From a virus (taxonomy: Duplodnaviria; Heunggongvirae; Uroviricota; Caudoviricetes): a stretch of DNA of 5,574 nt. Position numbers and translations under genes: made by a program. The notes under the pieces are model-generated. The model worked only from the letters and a program-made list of their open reading frames with translations, was not told where the DNA came from and made no database searches. Below, piece by piece: positions 1-5,574 of this stretch. The stretch lies in IMG/VR virus record IMGVR_UViG_2617270990_000009; one strand, 5' to 3'. The number at the start of each line of letters is the position of its first letter. Position 1 is the stretch's first letter.

Positions 1-325
1 ATTTTTTCCAGAGGCGGTCGAACTCCGCCTTCGCAAAATAAGCGGAAGCCTGGCGAAGGATATCGTTACTGCGGCGCAGTTCACGATTTTCACGTTCCAG
101 CTCTTTCAGACGCTGACGTTCAGCGCTGGTGAGCCCACCATCACCGCCCCCGGTATCCCGCTCATGCTGGCGAACCCAGACACGCAGAGTCTCCGGCGTA
201 CAGCCAATCTTTGGGGCAATGGAACAAATTGCCGCCCACTGTGAGTCATATTCATCCTGACTTTCCAGAACCATACGAATCGCCCGCTGACGGACTTCGG
301 GGGAAAAACGAGTATTTTTAGTCAT
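1..325 (-). CDS. IS3-family transposase OrfA (HTH DNA-binding subunit), cut at window edge just at its stop codon
   Basis: ATG at 323..325 on the minus strand; translation identical to the 108-aa OrfA of the second copy ([22 protein letters not shown]...). RBS AGGTAAACAGG upstream. Confidence 0.85.
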
Positions 326-379
326 CCTGTTTACCTCTTTCTCAGGGAGTTTAGTCTCCAGGATTTCCGGGGCGGTTCA
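1..379 (-). mobile_element. IS3-family insertion sequence (IS629-like), partial copy A; left-end terminus at 379, remainder lies beyond window start
   Basis: Reverse complement of 1..379 is base-for-base identical to 4284..4662 of the second copy as far as I can read (position x pairs with 4663-x). Terminus reads TGAACCGCCCCGG, which I recall as the IS629/IS1203 end. Confidence 0.9.
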
Positions 380-791
380 CTCCGGCATCTTTTTTATTGG
401 TTTGGGGGAGTGGATTAATTACCCTCTCAAGGTGAGATTTATTGGTCCTGGAGTTTGGACTCGTGGATATAATCGTTCTTCGTGCGCACTCGGTATCATC
501 TTCGACATACTTGGTTGTTTCCTGATTGTTACAGGAGTCGTCAAGTTCTTCTGATGTAAAACCGCAAATGGGGCACGTAACGGGAATTTTGAAAAGCGTT
601 TCTCCGGGTTCCAGAACAAAATTTTCTGCGGTCTGATTTTGCTTCTCATATTTGTGCTCCGCGTCATTGTGAGAGCACATTCTTATTCTGAGTGCCTGTT
701 TAAACTCACTGAAGCTGAGAGCTTCTTCGCCTTCGGCAAGGCCTTCGAAGTATTCTTCGTAAGCCTTTTCCATGATTGTGTCGAAATCCAT
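351..791 (-). CDS. ydfB/ydfC-like protein of the dicB-operon region (Cys-rich, CPICG...C...C); 3' end chimeric, last ~9 codons and stop lie inside the IS terminus, so native C-terminus is probably lost
   Basis: Minus-strand ORF; likely start is [17 protein letters not shown] at 789..791, one base after the ydfA-like stop, with AGGTGA RBS. The six-frame ORF extends to 833 but that overlaps ydfA. The reading frame crosses the IS boundary at 379/380. From memory it resembles K-12 YdfB plus YdfC, which I cannot verify. Confidence 0.5.
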
Positions 792-792
792 A

Positions 793-948
793 TCACTCAC
801 CTGAGTTTCTTTCCAGCCAGCGACGGGCACCATTTTCGGTTTTAAACGTTTTGCTTTTGGTATACGTCATCGCGGTGAACGTGCCGTCCTGATTGGGGAA
901 CACGCCACATACCAGAGATTCGCTGTTGCCAAGATCGATAGTATCCAT
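793..948 (-). CDS. ydfA: YdfA-like small protein (51 aa, DUF1391-type), first gene of the dicB-type operon
   Basis: ATG at 946..948 (minus) preceded by GAGGT RBS; translation MDTIDLGNSESLVCGVFPNQDGTFTAMTYTKSKTFKTENGARRWLERNSGE. Sits downstream of dicA on the same strand, as in K-12 Qin. Confidence 0.6.
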   Translation of the reverse strand: MDTIDLGNSESLVCGVFPNQDGTFTAMTYTKSKTFKTENGARRWLERNSGE

Positions 949-1025
949 GCTGACCTCATTTCCCCTTAACGCCGGGGTGGCGGAACTGTTTGCTGAGAAC
1001 ACCGTGCGGTGTGTTGATGTAAACA

Positions 1026-1054
1026 AGATTAGTCATAACTAACATATTGGTCAA
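1026..1054 (-). promoter_or_regulatory. Putative sigma70 promoter for the ydfA operon (dicBp-like): -35 TTGACC, 17-bp spacer, -10 TAATCT (minus-strand reading)
   Basis: Reverse complement of 1049..1054 is TTGACC and of 1026..1031 is TAATCT, with a 17-nt spacer; an operator-like site overlaps the spacer and -10. Confidence 0.35.
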
Positions 1055-1080
1055 GTGATTTTGTATGTTATGGCTAACAT
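1029..1080. promoter_or_regulatory. Two operator-like imperfect palindromes with CTAACA half-sites (TTAGTCATAACTAACA at 1029..1044; TGTTATGGCTAACA at 1066..1079), candidate DicA/DicC binding sites
   Basis: They share the TGTTAG/CTAACA half-site with the palindrome in the dicA-dicC intergenic region. Confidence 0.4.
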
Positions 1081-1114
1081 AATTGATATAATAAAAGATA
1101 ACTCATTGATGATG

Positions 1115-1522
1115 TTATCTTTTATTTGTCCGCTGACGGGCTTTTAGTAATTCTTCAAAGAGTTTATTGAAATTTTTTACTCGAGCTCGCATTTCGGCGA
1201 GCTGGGTATCCTGTTCTGATTCTGGCAGTGCATTAAACAGCTCAAGGAGCTCTAGTTCTTTGGGGGCTAAGGCAACCGGCTTCTCAACAGGTGGTGTTGG
1301 TTGCTTGTCTTCATCGCCAAATAGAATCCATGTTGGTGAGCATTGCAATACTTTGCTGAGGGCAAAAAGGTTCTTCCCTGTAGGTTCACTATCATCCCGT
1401 TCCCATTGTGATACAGACACATGGGAGATTTTCAGGGCTTTAGCAAGAGACCTTTGGGTGTGTTTGAGGTTTTTCCGACGATACCTAATGCGTTCGCCGA
1501 TGGTTAAATTTTTTGTATCCAT
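1115..1522 (-). CDS. dicA: DicA, P22 C2-like HTH_XRE repressor of the cell-division-inhibition operon (prophage immunity repressor)
   Basis: 135-aa ORF MDTKNLTIGERIRYRRKNLKHTQRSLAKALKISHVSVSQWERDDSEPTGKNLFALSKVLQCSPTWILFGDE..., recognised as near-identical to E. coli K-12 DicA from memory. Divergent from a Cro-like gene. Confidence 0.9.
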   Translation of the reverse strand: MDTKNLTIGERIRYRRKNLKHTQRSLAKALKISHVSVSQWERDDSEPTGKNLFALSKVLQCSPTWILFGDEDKQPTPPVEKPVALAPKELELLELFNALPESEQDTQLAEMRARVKNFNKLFEELLKARQRTNKR

Positions 1523-1524
1523 AG

Positions 1525-1538
1525 TTAGCTAATGCTAA
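1525..1538. promoter_or_regulatory. Short inverted repeat TTAGC-TAAT-GCTAA next to the dicA start; possible operator half-site pair
   Basis: Seen directly in sequence; lies 3 bp upstream of the dicA ATG on the minus strand. Confidence 0.25.
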
Positions 1539-1544
1539 ATCGTA

Positions 1545-1573
1545 TTGACTATGTTTTTGTTAACATCTATTTT
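1545..1573 (+). promoter_or_regulatory. Putative dicC promoter: -35 TTGACT (1545..1550), 17-bp spacer, -10 TATTTT (1568..1573)
   Basis: Consensus-like hexamers at the correct spacing, about 30 nt upstream of the dicC ATG. Confidence 0.4.
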
Positions 1574-1590
1574 GTTAGCCATGACTAACA
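1573..1590. promoter_or_regulatory. 18-bp near-perfect palindrome TGTTAGCCATGACTAACA, candidate DicA/DicC operator overlapping the -10 and start region of the dicC promoter
   Basis: Reverse complement is TGTTAGTCATGGCTAACA, so 16 of 18 positions are symmetric. Related sites are at 1029..1044 and 1066..1079. Confidence 0.45.
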
Positions 1591-1605
1591 TCTAAGGTGT
1601 TTTAA

Positions 1606-1836
1606 ATGCTTAAAACTGACGCTCTTTTGTATTTCGGTTCAAAAACAAAACTTGCACAAGCAGCAGGTATTCGTTTGGCTTCGCTTTATAGCTGGAAAGG
1701 GGATTTAGTTCCCGAAGGTCGCGCGATGCGTCTACAGGAGGCATCTGGCGGGGAGCTTCAGTATGATCCCAAAGTTTATGACGAATATCGTAAGACGAAG
1801 CGGGCGGGGCGGTTGAACAATGAAAATCACTCCTGA
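1606..1836 (+). CDS. dicC: DicC, Cro-like small DNA-binding regulator
   Basis: 76-aa ORF MLKTDALLYFGSKTKLAQAAGIRLASLYSWKGDLVPEGRAMRLQEASGGELQYDPKVYDEYRKTKRAGRLNNENHS matching K-12 DicC from memory; AAGGTG RBS 6 nt upstream; divergent from dicA. Confidence 0.88.
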   Translation: MLKTDALLYFGSKTKLAQAAGIRLASLYSWKGDLVPEGRAMRLQEASGGELQYDPKVYDEYRKTKRAGRLNNENHS

Positions 1837-2341
1837 ACAGGCTCGTGAGGCTCTGGATGCCTGGATATGTCGACCAGGAATGACACAGGAGCAGGCGACG
1901 ATATTAATCACTGAAGCATTCTGGGCTTTGAAAGAGCGCCCGAACATCGATGTTCAGCGTGTCACATATGAAGGTGGCGCGGTTGATCAGCGAGCGCTTA
2001 GCGTTAATCGAGTGAAGATATTTGAACGCTGGAAGGCTATCGACACCAGGGATAAGCGTGAAAAGTTCACAGCGCTAGTGCCTGCAATTATGGAGGCTAT
2101 CCGGATTAGTGATTTCAGGTTGTATCGTGAAATTAGTGACGGAAAGAGCATTACGTACATGATCGCTGGGTTAAATAAAGAATATGGCGATGTGGTGGAG
2201 TCCGGACTGCTTTTTGCAGATCCTGCCGTTGTAGATCGTGAAACTGACGAACTTATAGAAAAAGCAATTGCTTTCAAGCTTGCGTATCGACAGCAATACC
2301 AACAAAAAGCTGGATGGAATTATGAGCCTTCTTTTTGCTGA
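1820..2341 (+). CDS. YdaT-like protein (proposed functional analogue of lambda CII in Rac/CP-933-type prophages)
   Basis: 173-aa ORF whose ATG overlaps the dicC stop by 17 nt. The internal motif KREKFTALVPAIMEAI resembles what I recall of Rac YdaT; position immediately after the cro-like gene fits. Family assignment is from memory. Confidence 0.55.
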   Translation: MKITPEQAREALDAWICRPGMTQEQATILITEAFWALKERPNIDVQRVTYEGGAVDQRALSVNRVKIFERWKAIDTRDKREKFTALVPAIMEAIRISDFRLYREISDGKSITYMIAGLNKEYGDVVESGLLFADPAVVDRETDELIEKAIAFKLAYRQQYQQKAGWNYEPSFC

Positions 2342-3287
2342 ACGCCCACTGGTTATAAACACACAGCTTGCGATGAAGATTGGCTTAAACGAAGCCATTG
2401 TGTTGCAGCAACTGCATTACTGGTTGAGAGATACCAATTCCGGCATGGAATGTGATGGTGTTCGCTGGATTTACAACACAACGGAACAATGGCTGGCGCA
2501 GTTCCCGTTCTGGTCAGAGTCAACGTTAAAGCGCGCGTTTGCAAGTCTGAAAACGCTGGGGCTTTTGCGTTGCGAAAAGCTCAATAAATCAAAGCGCGAC
2601 ATGACCAATTTCTACACGATCAACTATGGGAGCGATCTTTTAGATGGTGGCAAATTGAGCGAATCCATCAGTTCAAAATGCGTCGCTCCATCAGGTCAAA
2701 ATGACATGATGGAAGAGGTCAAAATGAAACGCTCCATTGGTTCAAAACGACCCAATGTCATCGGGTCAAAATGGCCCGATGATCCTACAGAGAATACAAC
2801 AGAGATTACTACAGAGAATAAAAACACTTTTCGTCCGGAAGCTTTGCAACCGGACCAGCAGACGGCTGAACAGGATTTTTTAATCCGGCACCCTGACGCA
2901 GTTGTGTTTAGTGCGAAAAAACGGCAGTGGGGTAGCAGGGAGGATTTGGCGTGTGCGCAGTGGATCTGGGGGCGGATCGTGGGTCTCTACGAACAGGCCG
3001 CCAGTGATGATGGCGAGATCATGCGACCAAAAGAGCCTAACTGGACTGCCTGGGCCAATGACGTGCGCACAATGCGGATGCTGGATGGCAGAAGCCACAG
3101 ACAAATTTGCGAAATGTTTGGTCGGGTACAGCGAGATCCATTCTGGGTCAAAAACATCATGAGTCCGTCAAAGCTTCGCGAAAAATGGGATGAGCTGGTT
3201 ATTCGCCTGGGGCGTTCGCCAATAAAGCGTTGTGTGAATCATATTTCTGAACCGGATACCGAAATTCCGCCTGGTTTCAGGGGATAA
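2322..3287 (+). CDS. Phage replication initiator, lambda O-like (N-terminal winged-helix iteron-binding domain, linker containing the origin repeats, C-terminal DnaT-like domain)
   Basis: Long ORF; preferred start ATG 2322 (MSLLFAERPLVINTQLAMKIGLNEAIVLQQLHYWL...) overlapping the upstream gene by 20 nt. The six-frame ORF begins at 2268. Iteron array lies inside the coding sequence, as in lambda O. Confidence 0.7.
   Translation: MSLLFAERPLVINTQLAMKIGLNEAIVLQQLHYWLRDTNSGMECDGVRWIYNTTEQWLAQFPFWSESTLKRAFASLKTLGLLRCEKLNKSKRDMTNFYTINYGSDLLDGGKLSESISSKCVAPSGQNDMMEEVKMKRSIGSKRPNVIGSKWPDDPTENTTEITTENKNTFRPEALQPDQQTAEQDFLIRHPDAVVFSAKKRQWGSREDLACAQWIWGRIVGLYEQAASDDGEIMRPKEPNWTAWANDVRTMRMLDGRSHRQICEMFGRVQRDPFWVKNIMSPSKLREKWDELVIRLGRSPIKRCVNHISEPDTEIPPGFRG
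2664..2780. repeat. Origin-like iteron array: five direct repeats with core G(G/T)TCAAAA(T/C)G at ~23-bp spacing
   Basis: TCAAAA cores at 2673, 2696, 2719, 2742 and 2767; units 1 and 2 also share the TCCATCAG prefix. Located in the linker-coding part of the O-like gene. Confidence 0.6.
2787..2822. repeat. Three in-frame 12-bp tandem repeats ACAGAGA(A/T)TA.. (AT-rich), encoding TENT-TEIT-TENK; candidate DNA-unwinding element next to the iterons
   Basis: ACAGAGAATACA / ACAGAGATTACT / ACAGAGAATAAA read directly from the sequence, immediately 3' of the iteron array. Confidence 0.7.
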
Positions 3288-3327
3288 GTGTTGATTTCAG
3301 GTCATGAGGTAATTTTAAGGGGGACTT

Positions 3328-3756
3328 GTGGCAAAAGTTTTTACACAAGAAGAGCGGGAAAAAATTAAAGGGCAGGTGGTGGAACTCGTGCGCCAGAGCG
3401 GTCGTGAGACGTTACGGCAACTGGAAGCCAAGACAGGTGCGACAAGATATCTGATGAGCGCTCTTGCCAGAGAGCTGGTTGCCAGTGGCGATGTATACAA
3501 CTCTGGTTACGGGTTATTCCCGTCTGAACAGGCCCGTAAGGACTGGCAAAACGCCCGCAAAAAACTCTCGAGGGCAAAGGTGAAGAAACCCGCTGCGGTT
3601 GATCCAGACCTTATCTGGTCATTAGCTGACGGAGAAATACGTCGTTACGACAGACATCATAATATAATTTGTAGTGAGTGCCGTAAAAGCGAAGTTATGC
3701 AGCGTATATTGTCTTTTTATCAGGGAAATGTTCGATATTTATTGAAGTATCAATAA
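3328..3756 (+). CDS. Hypothetical 142-aa protein (possible winged-helix N-terminus; HH..C..C cluster near C-terminus); function unknown
   Basis: GTG start at 3328 preceded by a strong SD (TAAGGGGGA); ORF uninterrupted. I do not recognise a family. Confidence 0.55.
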   Translation: MAKVFTQEEREKIKGQVVELVRQSGRETLRQLEAKTGATRYLMSALARELVASGDVYNSGYGLFPSEQARKDWQNARKKLSRAKVKKPAAVDPDLIWSLADGEIRRYDRHHNIICSECRKSEVMQRILSFYQGNVRYLLKYQ

Positions 3757-3851
3757 CCTATTTAAACATTCCTTAAACTCAGAGTAGACTGGGTTAACAA
3801 TCTGTTTCAATTGCAAATTGACAATCTATAGCCAGCGCGACGGGAGTGTTC

Positions 3852-4283
3852 ATGTTTAGTCAGGTTGACATCGGTAGTTTCGGTAGTTTTACGGACCTCA
3901 GTTGGAAAAATAGCCTTAAGGATGCAGGTAACAATGTCCAGAATTTCAAGAGGCTTAACATCCTCTACGGACGGAACTACTCTGGTAAAACTACACTCTC
4001 ACGAATTTTCCGCGCTTTGGAAACGGGGCGCATTCCACATAACTACGTGGACCCAAATTTTACTATTCGTGGTGACAAAGGTGATGTGACACAGGTAGGT
4101 CTTGCTGGTCATGGCTACGATGTTCGCGTCTACAACCGGGATTTTGTGAGCGATAACCTAAACTTCTTGGTCAATCAGACCGACGGCGAGATCAAGACGT
4201 TTGCTATCGTTGGTGAAAAGAATAAAGAAATCGAAGATGCCATTACCGCAATTCAAACTAGGTTAGGCAGTGTTGAATCGAAG
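3852..4283 (+). pseudogene. N-terminal fragment (144 codons) of a P-loop ATPase (Walker A GRNYSGKTT; resembles AAA_13 / RloC-PrrC-like or related defence ATPases), truncated by the IS insertion
   Basis: ATG 3852 with GGGAG RBS 5 nt upstream (GTG 3846 also in frame). Motifs NILYGRNYSGKTTLSRIF and VRVYNRDFVSDNLNFL. Reading frame terminates on TGA at 4284..4286, which is the first three bases of the IS terminus. Proteins of this type are normally several hundred aa. Confidence 0.65.
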
Positions 4284-4337
4284 TGAACCGCCCCGGAAAT
4301 CCTGGAGACTAAACTCCCTGAGAAAGAGGTAAACAGG

Positions 4338-4664
4338 ATGACTAAAAATACTCGTTTTTCCCCCGAAGTCCGTCAGCGGGCGATTCGTATGGTTCTGGAA
4401 AGTCAGGATGAATATGACTCACAGTGGGCGGCAATTTGTTCCATTGCCCCAAAGATTGGCTGTACGCCGGAGACTCTGCGTGTCTGGGTTCGCCAGCATG
4501 AGCGGGATACCGGGGGCGGTGATGGTGGGCTCACCAGCGCTGAACGTCAGCGTCTGAAAGAGCTGGAACGTGAAAATCGTGAACTGCGCCGCAGTAACGA
4601 TATCCTTCGCCAGGCTTCCGCTTATTTTGCGAAGGCGGAGTTCGACCGCCTCTGGAAAAAATGA
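4338..4664 (+). CDS. IS3-family transposase OrfA (HTH subunit)
   Basis: 108-aa [33 protein letters not shown]... with leucine-zipper-like C-terminus; GAGG RBS upstream. Confidence 0.9.
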
Positions 4665-5551
4665 TGCCACTGCTGGATAAGCTGCGTGAGCAGTACGGGG
4701 TCGGACCGGTATGCAGCGAACTGCATATTGCCCCGTCAACGTATTACCATTGTCAGCAACAGCGACATCATCCGGATAAACGCAGTGCCCGTGCGCAGCA
4801 CGACGACTGGCTGAAGAGAGAGATACAGCGCGTATACGATGAAAATCATCAGGTGTACGGTGTGCGTAAAGTCTGGCGTCAGTTGTTACGGGAAGGAATC
4901 AGGGTGGCCAGATGTACAGTGGCACGTCTCATGGCGGTTATGGGACTTGCCGGTGTTCTCCGGGGTAAAAAGGTCCGTACGACCATCAGCCGGAAAGCCG
5001 TTGCCGCAGGCGACCGCGTAAACCGTCAGTTCGTGGCAGAACGACCTGACCAGCTGTGGGTGGCTGATTTTACTTACGTCAGCACATGGCAGGGCTTCGT
5101 CTATGTGGCGTTTATCATTGATGTGTTTGCCGGATACATCGTGGGGTGGCGGGTCTCATCGTCTATGGAAACGACATTCGTGCTGGATGCGCTGGAGCAG
5201 GCGTTGTGGGCCCGTCGTCCGTCTGGCACCATCCATCACAGCGATAAAGGCTCTCAGTATGTGTCACTGGCCTATACGGAGCGACTAAAAGAAGCCGGAT
5301 TACTGGCATCAACAGGGAGTACAGGCGACTCGTATGACAACGCGATGGCTGAGAGCATCAATGGTCTTTACAAAGCGGAGGTAATACACCGTAAGAGCTG
5401 GAAAAACCGTGCAGAAGTGGAACTGGCCACACTAACGTGGGTGGACTGGTATAACAATCGACGATTGCTGGGAAGGCTGGGCCATACTCCTCCGGCAGAA
5501 GCAGAAAAAGCTTATTATGCTTCCATCGGAAACGATGATCTGGCAGCCTGA
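4661..5551 (+). CDS. IS3-family transposase OrfB (DDE catalytic domain), expressed as an OrfAB fusion by -1 frameshifting
   Basis: 296-aa ORF in -1 frame relative to orfA, overlapping it by 4 nt (ATGA); DDE-type motifs ([24 protein letters not shown]). Confidence 0.9.
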
Positions 5552-5574
5552 GTTCACAGATAAAACACTCTCCA

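Follow-up and report, generated by a model that had tools for sequence, protein, structure and literature searches.

Two IS629/IS1203 copies, probably independent insertions, bracket the immunity and replication region of a Qin-like prophage in Escherichia coli

The window, by which we mean the whole stretch of DNA analysed here, is the complete 5,574-bp contig JNSB01000129.1 of a short-read draft assembly of E. coli. It carries parts of two copies of one insertion sequence (IS), in inverted orientation, on either side of a 3.9-kb prophage segment. Comparison with sister contigs and with an IS-free genome makes it very probable that these copies are two independent simple insertions, which neither moved nor rearranged the segment between them. 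Each copy has its own target-site duplication (TSD) and the IS-free genome is colinear with the segment; thus, the arrangement is best read as two separate events and neither as a composite transposon nor as a duplicative inversion. The insertions are real but ordinary, since the peppering of a cryptic prophage with IS629/IS1203 is already documented for O157 (PMC3271280).

The element begins with TGAACCGCC, which fixes copy A at positions 1–379 on the minus strand and copy B at 4284–5574 on the plus strand. The reverse complement of 1–379 is exactly 4284–4662, and a perfect 379-nt inverted repeat is far beyond chance. The IRL ends point inward with 3,904 bp (380–4283) between the copies, in agreement with the sequence-only reading, which had described two identical inverted copies about 3.9 kb apart with their left ends facing each other. 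A repeat search returned slightly longer arms (1–384 and 4279–4662, 384 nt per arm with 3894 nt between); the extra five bases are flanking DNA and contain one mismatch (CGGAG versus CGAAG), so that the reported identity of “100%” is a rounding. Copy A covers element positions 379 to 1 (IRL at approximately 354–379, most of orfA at 1–325) and runs off the contig end. Copy B covers element positions 1–1291 of 1310, with the last 19 nt of the IRR absent, and contains the IRL (approximately 4284–4309), orfA (4338–4664), an A6 slippery run (4656–4661), an ALIL pseudoknot (4619–4735) and orfB (4661–5551).

On the basis of sequence, this element is a member of the IS3 family, IS629/IS1203, all five characters used for the assignment being present. 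orfA matches Pfam HTH_Tnp_1, and orfB, which overlaps orfA in the -1 frame, matches rve, HTH_21 and rve_3. The transposase scores 316 bits against NCBIfam transpos_IS3 (cut-off 160), and the ALIL frameshift pseudoknot scores 121.5 bits against Rfam RF01497 (gathering score 50). The A6 run precedes the orfA stop and constitutes a predicted -1 frameshift signal. Completed with the missing 19 nt, the element is 1310 bp long; copy A aligns to this completed IS at 100% identity by BLAST, and all 1310 positions are identical to a copy in NZ_CP104526 (locus L003) that PGAP names “IS3-like element IS1203 family transposase”. The latter copy has a GTT TSD and that at another locus (L002) a CTGG TSD, within the 3–4 bp reported for IS629 (PMC3271280). 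The termini, TGAACC...GGTTCA, have TG...CA ends, and the imperfect inverted repeats match at 22 of the first 26 positions (IRR taken from L003 and from the sister contigs L009 and L015, see below). IS629 and IS1203 are isoforms of one IS3-family element, known from E. coli O157:H7 and Shigella sonnei, with the same 1310-bp length, orfA/orfB organization, -1 frameshift, ALIL, TGAACCGCCCCGG... termini, 3-bp TSDs and preference for prophages, in which 62% of the IS629 copies of O157 reside (PMC3271280). The element described here does not differ from them; only its two insertion sites are new, neither of which occurs in the 5,426 complete E. coli genomes searched.

The missing outer IS ends come from JNSB01000142.1 (L015) and JNSB01000128.1 (L009), sister contigs in this assembly, and were compared with the corresponding locus (L001) of the IS-free genome NZ_CP128255. 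The unique part of L015 ends at L001 position 6003 (...GTCCTC) and is followed by the IRR of an inverted IS, and the window picks up after copy A at L001 position 6001 (CTC...), which places the inner TSD of copy A, CTC, at 380–382. For copy B, L009 reads ...GGCGGTTCA followed directly by AAGGCGGGTCTCC, that is, L001 position 9902 onward, and the window reads ...GAATCGAAG followed by TGAACC, so that the inner TSD, AAG, lies at 4281–4283. Each copy is therefore flanked by its own direct 3-bp TSD (CTC/CTC for A and AAG/AAG for B), and both junctions map to the exact base on the empty site. Of the checks proposed from the sequence, which were well chosen, inspection of the outer ends and comparison with an IS-free relative were informative: the ends and their TSDs are present on the sister contigs, and NZ_CP128255 is colinear with window positions 380–4283, differing at a single position in 3,904 bp (99.97% identity); beyond the segment, on either side, it carries the gene halves that the window lacks.

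Further evidence comes from the coding sequences created or displaced by the insertions. If copy A is a simple insertion with a TSD of 3 bp, a chimeric ORF of 62 aa should exist; this prediction was made beforehand, and the ORF was found in the assembly on JNSB01000142.1 only. The C-terminal part of the gene interrupted by copy B, which encodes an ATPase, is located on JNSB01000128.1 directly after the IRR and AAG; five of eight candidate C-terminal fragments of this ATPase, with assumed internal starts, are present in the protein collection, and the 572-aa fragment is on the sister contig. From the matching TSDs we infer that the outer and inner junctions are joined through each 1.3-kb IS body. 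By analogy with other members of the family, an OrfAB transposase would be made through a -1 frameshift on the A6 run, assisted by the ALIL pseudoknot, and a circular intermediate of the IS would form and then insert with duplication of 3 bp of target.

Four of the five bases flanking copies A and B agree, including an AG that immediately precedes TGAACC at both junctions. The sequence-only reading had noted this AG and considered it either chance or part of the element. The second possibility was rejected, as the AG bases are present in the uninterrupted allele; they are target DNA and fit a weak target bias of IS629 (C at -5, G at -3 and A at -2), a motif unreported in PMC3271280.

The bracketed segment is, by its gene content, the immunity and replication core of a defective Qin-like lambdoid prophage. 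Its left part carries ydfA (793–948, minus strand; DUF1391, Pfam PF07151, 2.8e-27), the first gene of the dicB operon, and the cI-type HTH repressor gene dicA (1115–1522, minus strand; Pfam HTH_3 and Phage_CI_repr), both annotated in L001. On the plus strand these are followed by dicC, encoding a Cro-like regulator (1606–1836; Pfam P22_Cro, 1.7e-11; annotated dicC in L001), a gene for a YdaT-family protein (1820–2341; Pfam PF06254 and RefSeq annotation), a gene for an O-like replication initiator (2322–3287; RefSeq “phage O protein family / phage replication protein O”) and a gene for a DUF977 protein (3328–3756; Pfam PF06163, 1.8e-29). The O-like gene contains five 23-bp iterons (2666–2781) and then 12-bp repeats (2785–2823). 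The divergent pair of cI-type dicA and cro-type dicC, with ydfA-dicF-dicB downstream of dicA, is the arrangement of a Qin-like immunity region, and, downstream of the copy A site, Rfam recognizes the DicF RNA (72.5 bits). No NCBIfam family scored above its cut-off for the ATPase, the 205-aa ORF described below, the O-like protein or the YdaT-like protein, and scans of 380–4283 for sigma-70 promoters and terminators gave no enrichment over shuffled sequences.

The prophage of the IS-free relative adjoins rspB, the same chromosomal neighbourhood as Qin (Kim) of K-12, and L001 is annotated with the shared genes dicA, dicC, ydfA, dicB, ydfD, hokD and rem and with the DicF RNA. It keeps an integrase, an excisionase, an exonuclease, the O-like gene with its iterons, the DUF977 gene and an RloC-like ATPase gene, whereas Qin of K-12 is not known to have any of these. 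It also has a hypothetical ORF of 205 aa in place of the ydfB/ydfC region.

Each IS copy interrupts one of these genes, as had been read from the window, and the full-length versions, the 205-aa ORF and a 798-aa ATPase, are present in the IS-free allele. Copy A (minus strand, TSD CTC) lies in the hypothetical ORF, which has a ydfB-like N-terminus and is reduced from 205 to 160 aa (351–833, minus strand). About 146 codons of this ORF precede the insertion, its last 14 residues and stop being encoded by the IS end, and an antisense ORF of 106 aa is cut at the same point. The 205-aa ORF has no family match in Pfam, NCBIfam or PADLOC, and the only RefSeq annotation at its site in L001 is a ydfB pseudogene. 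Both truncations are real, but the earlier description of two operons cut at their distal ends does not hold for copy A, which interrupts the ydfA-dicF-dicB operon after only ~0.6 kb. It stands between the operon promoter and dicF, dicB and ydfD, a position that uncouples the cell-division inhibitors DicF and DicB from their promoter and is expected to cause polar loss of dicF/dicB expression.

Copy B (plus strand, TSD AAG) lies at codon 144 of the ATPase gene, of which the N-terminal 144 codons remain (3852–4286, plus strand; Pfam AAA_13); the reading frame then stops at the TGA (4284–4286) with which the IS begins. The full-length protein in L001 matches PADLOC family PDC-S06 with an E-value of 0 over residues 1–794 and PrrC partially (4.6e-15). 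It has a CAFC motif in mid-protein, and one of its cluster mates is named “wobble nucleotide-excising tRNase”. These similarities suggest an RloC/PrrC-like candidate defence protein, PDC-S06 itself being a candidate family, and the insertion of copy B presumably abolished its function. Anticodon nucleases of the RloC/PrrC type are AAA_13 ATPases of some 800 aa in which a coiled-coil insertion bears a CxxC hook and the nuclease region is C-terminal.

Copies A and B are inverted and, as assembled, identical, and RecA-dependent recombination between such 1.3-kb inverted repeats could only invert the 3.9-kb segment. A crossover inside the IS bodies leaves all four junctions unchanged, such that the contig set fits either isomer equally well, and the isomer present cannot be told from short reads. 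Many IS629 copies are without a TSD (~30% of the complete copies sampled from IMG/VR and 26 of 47 in O157; PMC3271280), which shows that later rearrangement between copies is common. Nevertheless, we consider it unlikely that the segment is inverted in the sequenced strain or that both orientations are mixed: an inversion of 3.9 kb between 1.3-kb repeats is expected to be rare per generation, and no positive evidence points to one, the matched TSDs showing only the colinear ancestral state.

Deletion had been proposed alongside inversion as an outcome of recombination between the two copies. Inversion can indeed proceed through A and B, but deletion needs a direct repeat, which is provided by a third IS629, copy C, located 3 kb downstream in rem, outside the window, and oriented directly to A and inverted to B; recombination between A and C could delete the 3.9-kb segment. 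The sequence-only reading had also named, as grounds against it, outer ends that reveal two unrelated events with no potential for rearrangement. The outer ends do show two unrelated events, yet the potential remains. The IS-bounded inversions and deletions of IS-rich genomes (Shigella, O157) offer a parallel, with multiple identical IS copies of either orientation only a few kb apart at a prophage, although each of the four junctions described here is that of a simple insertion. Recent IS expansion was a further suggestion. IS activity in this lineage is plausible, given that three copies share a 7-kb stretch and that close relatives differ in their insertion sites, but the identity of the copies is no evidence for it. 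The IS parts are short-read contig ends, and their identity therefore says nothing about recency.

The same property bears on whether the contig is an artefact, i.e., a chimera or a collapsed repeat wrongly attached. At either end, this short-read contig stops within a multicopy repeat, and the IS sequence is the same at five contig ends of the assembly, an identity that a collapsed repeat consensus would also produce; the sequence there may average all copies in the genome. An artefact is nonetheless very unlikely, because the assembly also contains both complementary outer junctions, whose TSDs match exactly, because the junctions agree to the base with the empty site, and because the window contig and the sister contigs each recur in three samples, with junction B independently present in one Logan assembly and two metagenome contigs. 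As a caution, a short-read contig bounded by inverted IS ends is uninformative on the identity, linkage and orientation of the copies, and the true architecture of such contigs must come from sister contigs or long reads.

The same IS in inverted orientation around a DNA segment is also what a composite transposon would look like, and the window had been called composite-like. The likeness is one of appearance only, and it is highly improbable that the two copies mobilized the immunity and replication segment as a unit. Each IS has its own 3-bp TSD, where a composite would have one TSD around the whole, and in the empty, IS-free allele the inner flank of each copy runs directly into the outer one; on the TSD pattern this origin was rejected, as the unit never moved as a whole. 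It is found at no other location, as no single place in the 5,426 complete E. coli genomes matches 80% or more of the window. IS3-type elements (IS911, IS2) use an IRR-IRL circle junction, whereas both outer ends of the putative composite are IRR. Duplicative inversion, in which intramolecular replicative transposition of the kind known for IS26 or Tn3-type elements would have generated the second copy, classically yields inverted copies that bracket a segment, but it predicts an inverted segment and a single TSD split between the copies in inverted orientation, and was rejected as practically negligible on the direct TSD of each copy and because the IS3 family transposes by copy-out/paste-in via circles (bioRxiv 10.1101/2023.06.07.543989).

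With two independent insertions as the preferred reading, variation among relatives offers a view of IS629 turnover around site B. In related samples, site B is empty and has a 1-nt deletion (one A lost) inside the 3-bp AAG, probably the scar of an imprecise excision. Relatives carry IS629 elsewhere, either 40 bp upstream (IRR adjoining L001 position 9862) or 0.8 kb upstream (IRR adjoining L001 position 9121). Close relatives share a SNP at L001 position 11895, and two of them (L012 and L013) also share copy C. If the insertion of the L012 type is simple, its IRL-side junction is expected to read ...GATGCCATTA followed by TGAACC, with a TTA TSD. We tentatively suggest, with a confidence slightly short of even, that the prophage records a natural history in which IS629 entered a candidate anti-phage defence gene, was excised imprecisely and inserted again close by. 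The 1-nt deletion resembles IEE-dependent IS629 excision (Kusumoto et al. 2011, as reviewed in PMC9943667 and bioRxiv 10.1101/2023.06.07.543989), from which the present case differs in that excision is deduced by comparing natural samples. If true, these sites would provide field evidence that IEE-type excision scars, and local hopping of IS629, also occur outside the O157 lineage.

Probes of 101 nt for inner junctions A and B were covered to at least 80% by no record among the 5,426 complete E. coli genomes; partial extensions of the probes into the flanks reflect weak similarity to the flanks of other IS copies. Neither the exact copy C junction nor the alternative IS junction of L012 occurs in the complete E. 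coli genomes. A different IS3-family insertion in rem, ~55 bp away from the copy C site, is present in fifteen complete genomes.

The window is bounded by two copies of one insertion sequence in inverted orientation, copy A at 1–379 on the minus strand and copy B at 4284–5574 on the plus strand. Nucleotides 4284–4662 are the exact reverse complement of 1–379, and a repeat search of the window returned an inverted pair of 384 nt with 3894 nt between the arms. The five extra repeat bases are flanking DNA, agreeing at four of five positions (CGGAG vs CGAAG). The coordinates in the sequence-only reading, its orientation with left ends inward, its spacing of 3,904 bp (380–4283) and the identity of the copies over their shared part are all correct.

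Copy B encodes orfA (4338–4664, plus strand; HTH_Tnp_1) and orfB (4661–5551, plus strand; rve, HTH_21 and rve_3), which overlaps orfA in the −1 frame, with an ALIL frameshift pseudoknot (Rfam, 121.5 bits) at 4619–4735. NCBIfam transpos_IS3 matches this copy at 316 bits. The final 19 nt of the element are absent from the window; with them, it measures 1310 bp and shows 100% identity to an E. coli E8 copy, which PGAP names "IS3-like element IS1203 family transposase" and which has a target duplication of GTT. The termini are TGAACC...GGTTCA, and the two ends match at 22 of the first 26 positions. The element is IS629/IS1203, among the best-known insertion sequences of E. coli; both it and the phenomenon have been described before.

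The uninterrupted allele is found in E. coli T309.Ta3 (NZ_CP128255; locus L001), which extends past both sides of the segment between the copies and differs from its 3,904 bp by one mismatch, at window 1037. The L001 prophage adjoins rspB and contains, in order, integrase, excisionase, exonuclease, ydfD, dicB, DicF RNA (Rfam), an unannotated 205-aa ORF with a ydfB-like start, ydfA, dicA, dicC, a YdaT-family gene, an O-like replication gene, DUF977, a 798-aa AAA_13 ATPase, hokD/sok, rem, ydfU and ydfT. We identify this prophage, and that of the window, as Qin-like and lambdoid. Copy B follows codon 144 of the ATPase gene, with its first three bases providing a TGA stop. Copy A lies at L001 6000/6001, within the 205-aa ORF and transcriptionally upstream of dicF and dicB. 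Both the ATPase gene and the 205-aa ORF are thus interrupted, as had been proposed, but copy A falls in the promoter-proximal part of the ydfA–dicB operon rather than at its distal end.

For each copy, the sequences expected of a simple insertion that duplicates 3 bp were derived and then looked up. For copy B, translating what remains of the ATPase gene from its first in-frame start yields a 572-aa protein, which is present in the protein collection and is encoded on JNSB01000128.1 (L009), a contig of the window's own assembly. There, IS positions 6–1310, ending in GGCGGTTCA, are followed directly by AAGGCGGGTCTCC, corresponding to L001 9902 onward, with AAG as the target duplication. A chimeric 62-aa ORF is expected at copy A if 3 bp are duplicated, and it is found on exactly one contig, JNSB01000142.1 (L015), of the same assembly; the 4-bp alternatives of this ORF were looked up and were absent. 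L015 spans L001 3845 to 6003 and then enters an inverted IS starting from its right terminal repeat (IRR), giving a duplication of CTC. The outer ends and duplications that the sequence-only reading proposed to seek are therefore both located on sister contigs, and its suggested comparison with an IS-free relative is provided by L001, with which all four junctions (inner and outer, A and B) are colinear. As each copy has its own 3-bp duplication and colinear junctions, copies A and B are independent simple insertions. A duplicative inversion, which would show one duplication split between the copies in inverted orientation, is excluded, as is a composite transposon, which would show a single duplication around the whole unit; the composite-like arrangement is not composite in origin.

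Two junction-specific proteins, a 144-aa truncated ATPase and a 160-aa truncated left ORF, identify the window as the whole of contig JNSB01000129.1 in assembly GCA_000705005.1. Each end of this contig falls inside the element, the left one at IS position 379 and the right one at 1291; the sister contigs end at position 6 of the IS. Five contig ends of this assembly have identical IS sequence, and all of its IS-bearing contig ends agree. Such identity is expected from a collapsed repeat consensus, so the perfect match of A and B is no argument for recency. IS activity in this lineage, proposed as a recent expansion, is plausible, but copy identity in this assembly is uninformative about it.

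A third copy, copy C, ends JNSB01000128.1 (L009 4354–5658) and lies in rem on the minus strand, at about L001 12949–12951. Copy B lies 3 kb upstream of it in the opposite orientation, and copy A has the same orientation as copy C, so that 7 kb contains three copies in the order A(−), B(+), C(−). Between A and B, as between B and C, homologous recombination has inversion of the intervening DNA as its only possible outcome; of the inversion or deletion previously envisaged for A and B, inversion alone stands. Recombination between the direct repeats A and C would delete the whole immunity/replication segment together with copy B. Since recombination within the IS bodies keeps every junction sequence, short-read contigs are compatible with either inversion isomer. 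Neither inner junction is present in any of 5,426 complete E. coli genomes. Some complete genomes, e.g. NZ_CP148493 (2541348–2565543), contain a Qin-like prophage in which IS3-family copies have inserted into the exonuclease, DUF977 and rem genes; fragments of IS30 and IS600 are present there too, and the dicA/dicC region has been lost. Such IS3-laden prophages lacking dicA/dicC exemplify where these IS loads can lead.

Four independent assemblies from other samples (L011–L014) share with the window strain a SNP at L001 11895, and copy C is also common to L012 and L013. The insertion site of copy B is IS-free in all four, and a single A is missing from the AAG duplication (window 4281–4283, L001 9902–9904), which frameshifts the ATPase gene. 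The chance that a lone indel in about 3 kb hits the 3-bp duplication is very low, roughly 1 in 1,000. The deletion is best read as a probable scar of imprecise excision of copy B. Such a scar agrees with reports that excision of IS629 dependent on the IS-excision enhancer (IEE) comes with deletions that range upward from a few nucleotides (PMC9943667; bioRxiv 10.1101/2023.06.07.543989). IS629 occupies other sites nearby, 40 bp upstream in L012 and L013 (IRR adjoining L001 9862, window ~4243) and 0.8 kb upstream in L011 (IRR adjoining L001 9121, window ~3500), which suggests repeated local insertion in this prophage stretch.

The AG-containing flanks of both copies are present in the empty allele, so AG is target DNA. 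Among 111 distinct flanks of the left terminal repeat (IRL) of IS629/IS1203, from IMG/VR loci L016–L135, the upstream bias is weak but significant (C at −5 in 59, G at −3 in 46 and A at −2 in 49), and AG is one of the two commonest terminal dinucleotides (16/111 vs about 6% expected). As CGGAG and CGAAG both fit C at −5 and A at −2, we attribute the resemblance of the flanks to target preference plus chance; the earlier suggestion of chance is thus partly upheld, and that of element sequence is not. Rump et al. (2011) concluded that the IS629 target is not sequence-specific; of 47 sites, 21 had 3–4 bp duplications, and prophages contained 62% of the copies (PMC3271280). About 30% of complete IS629 copies in the IMG/VR set have no recognisable target duplication.

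The ATPase gene cut by copy B (window 3852–4286; full length L001 9473–11869) has a full-length match (E=0) to PDC-S06, a candidate defence family of PADLOC, and a partial one to PrrC. A CAFC motif lies in its central part, and the name "wobble nucleotide-excising tRNase", i.e. RloC, is given to one cluster mate. The gene is probably an RloC/PrrC-like one of abortive-infection type, presumably inactivated here. Pfam, NCBIfam and PADLOC contain no family that matches the 205-aa ORF. That ORF is overlapped by an antisense 106-aa ORF (window 402–554, plus strand; full L001 5855–6175), which some records term a putative membrane protein and which copy A interrupts at the same position. Within the O-like gene, five 23-bp iterons (window 2666–2781, core GGTCAAAATG) precede three 12-bp repeats (2785–2823), a lambda-type origin layout. 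Palindromic TGTTA(G)...(C)TAACA motifs flank dicA at window 1062–1096 and 1556–1590, one in the dicA–ydfA gap and the other in the dicA–dicC gap, and are likely DicA operator sites.
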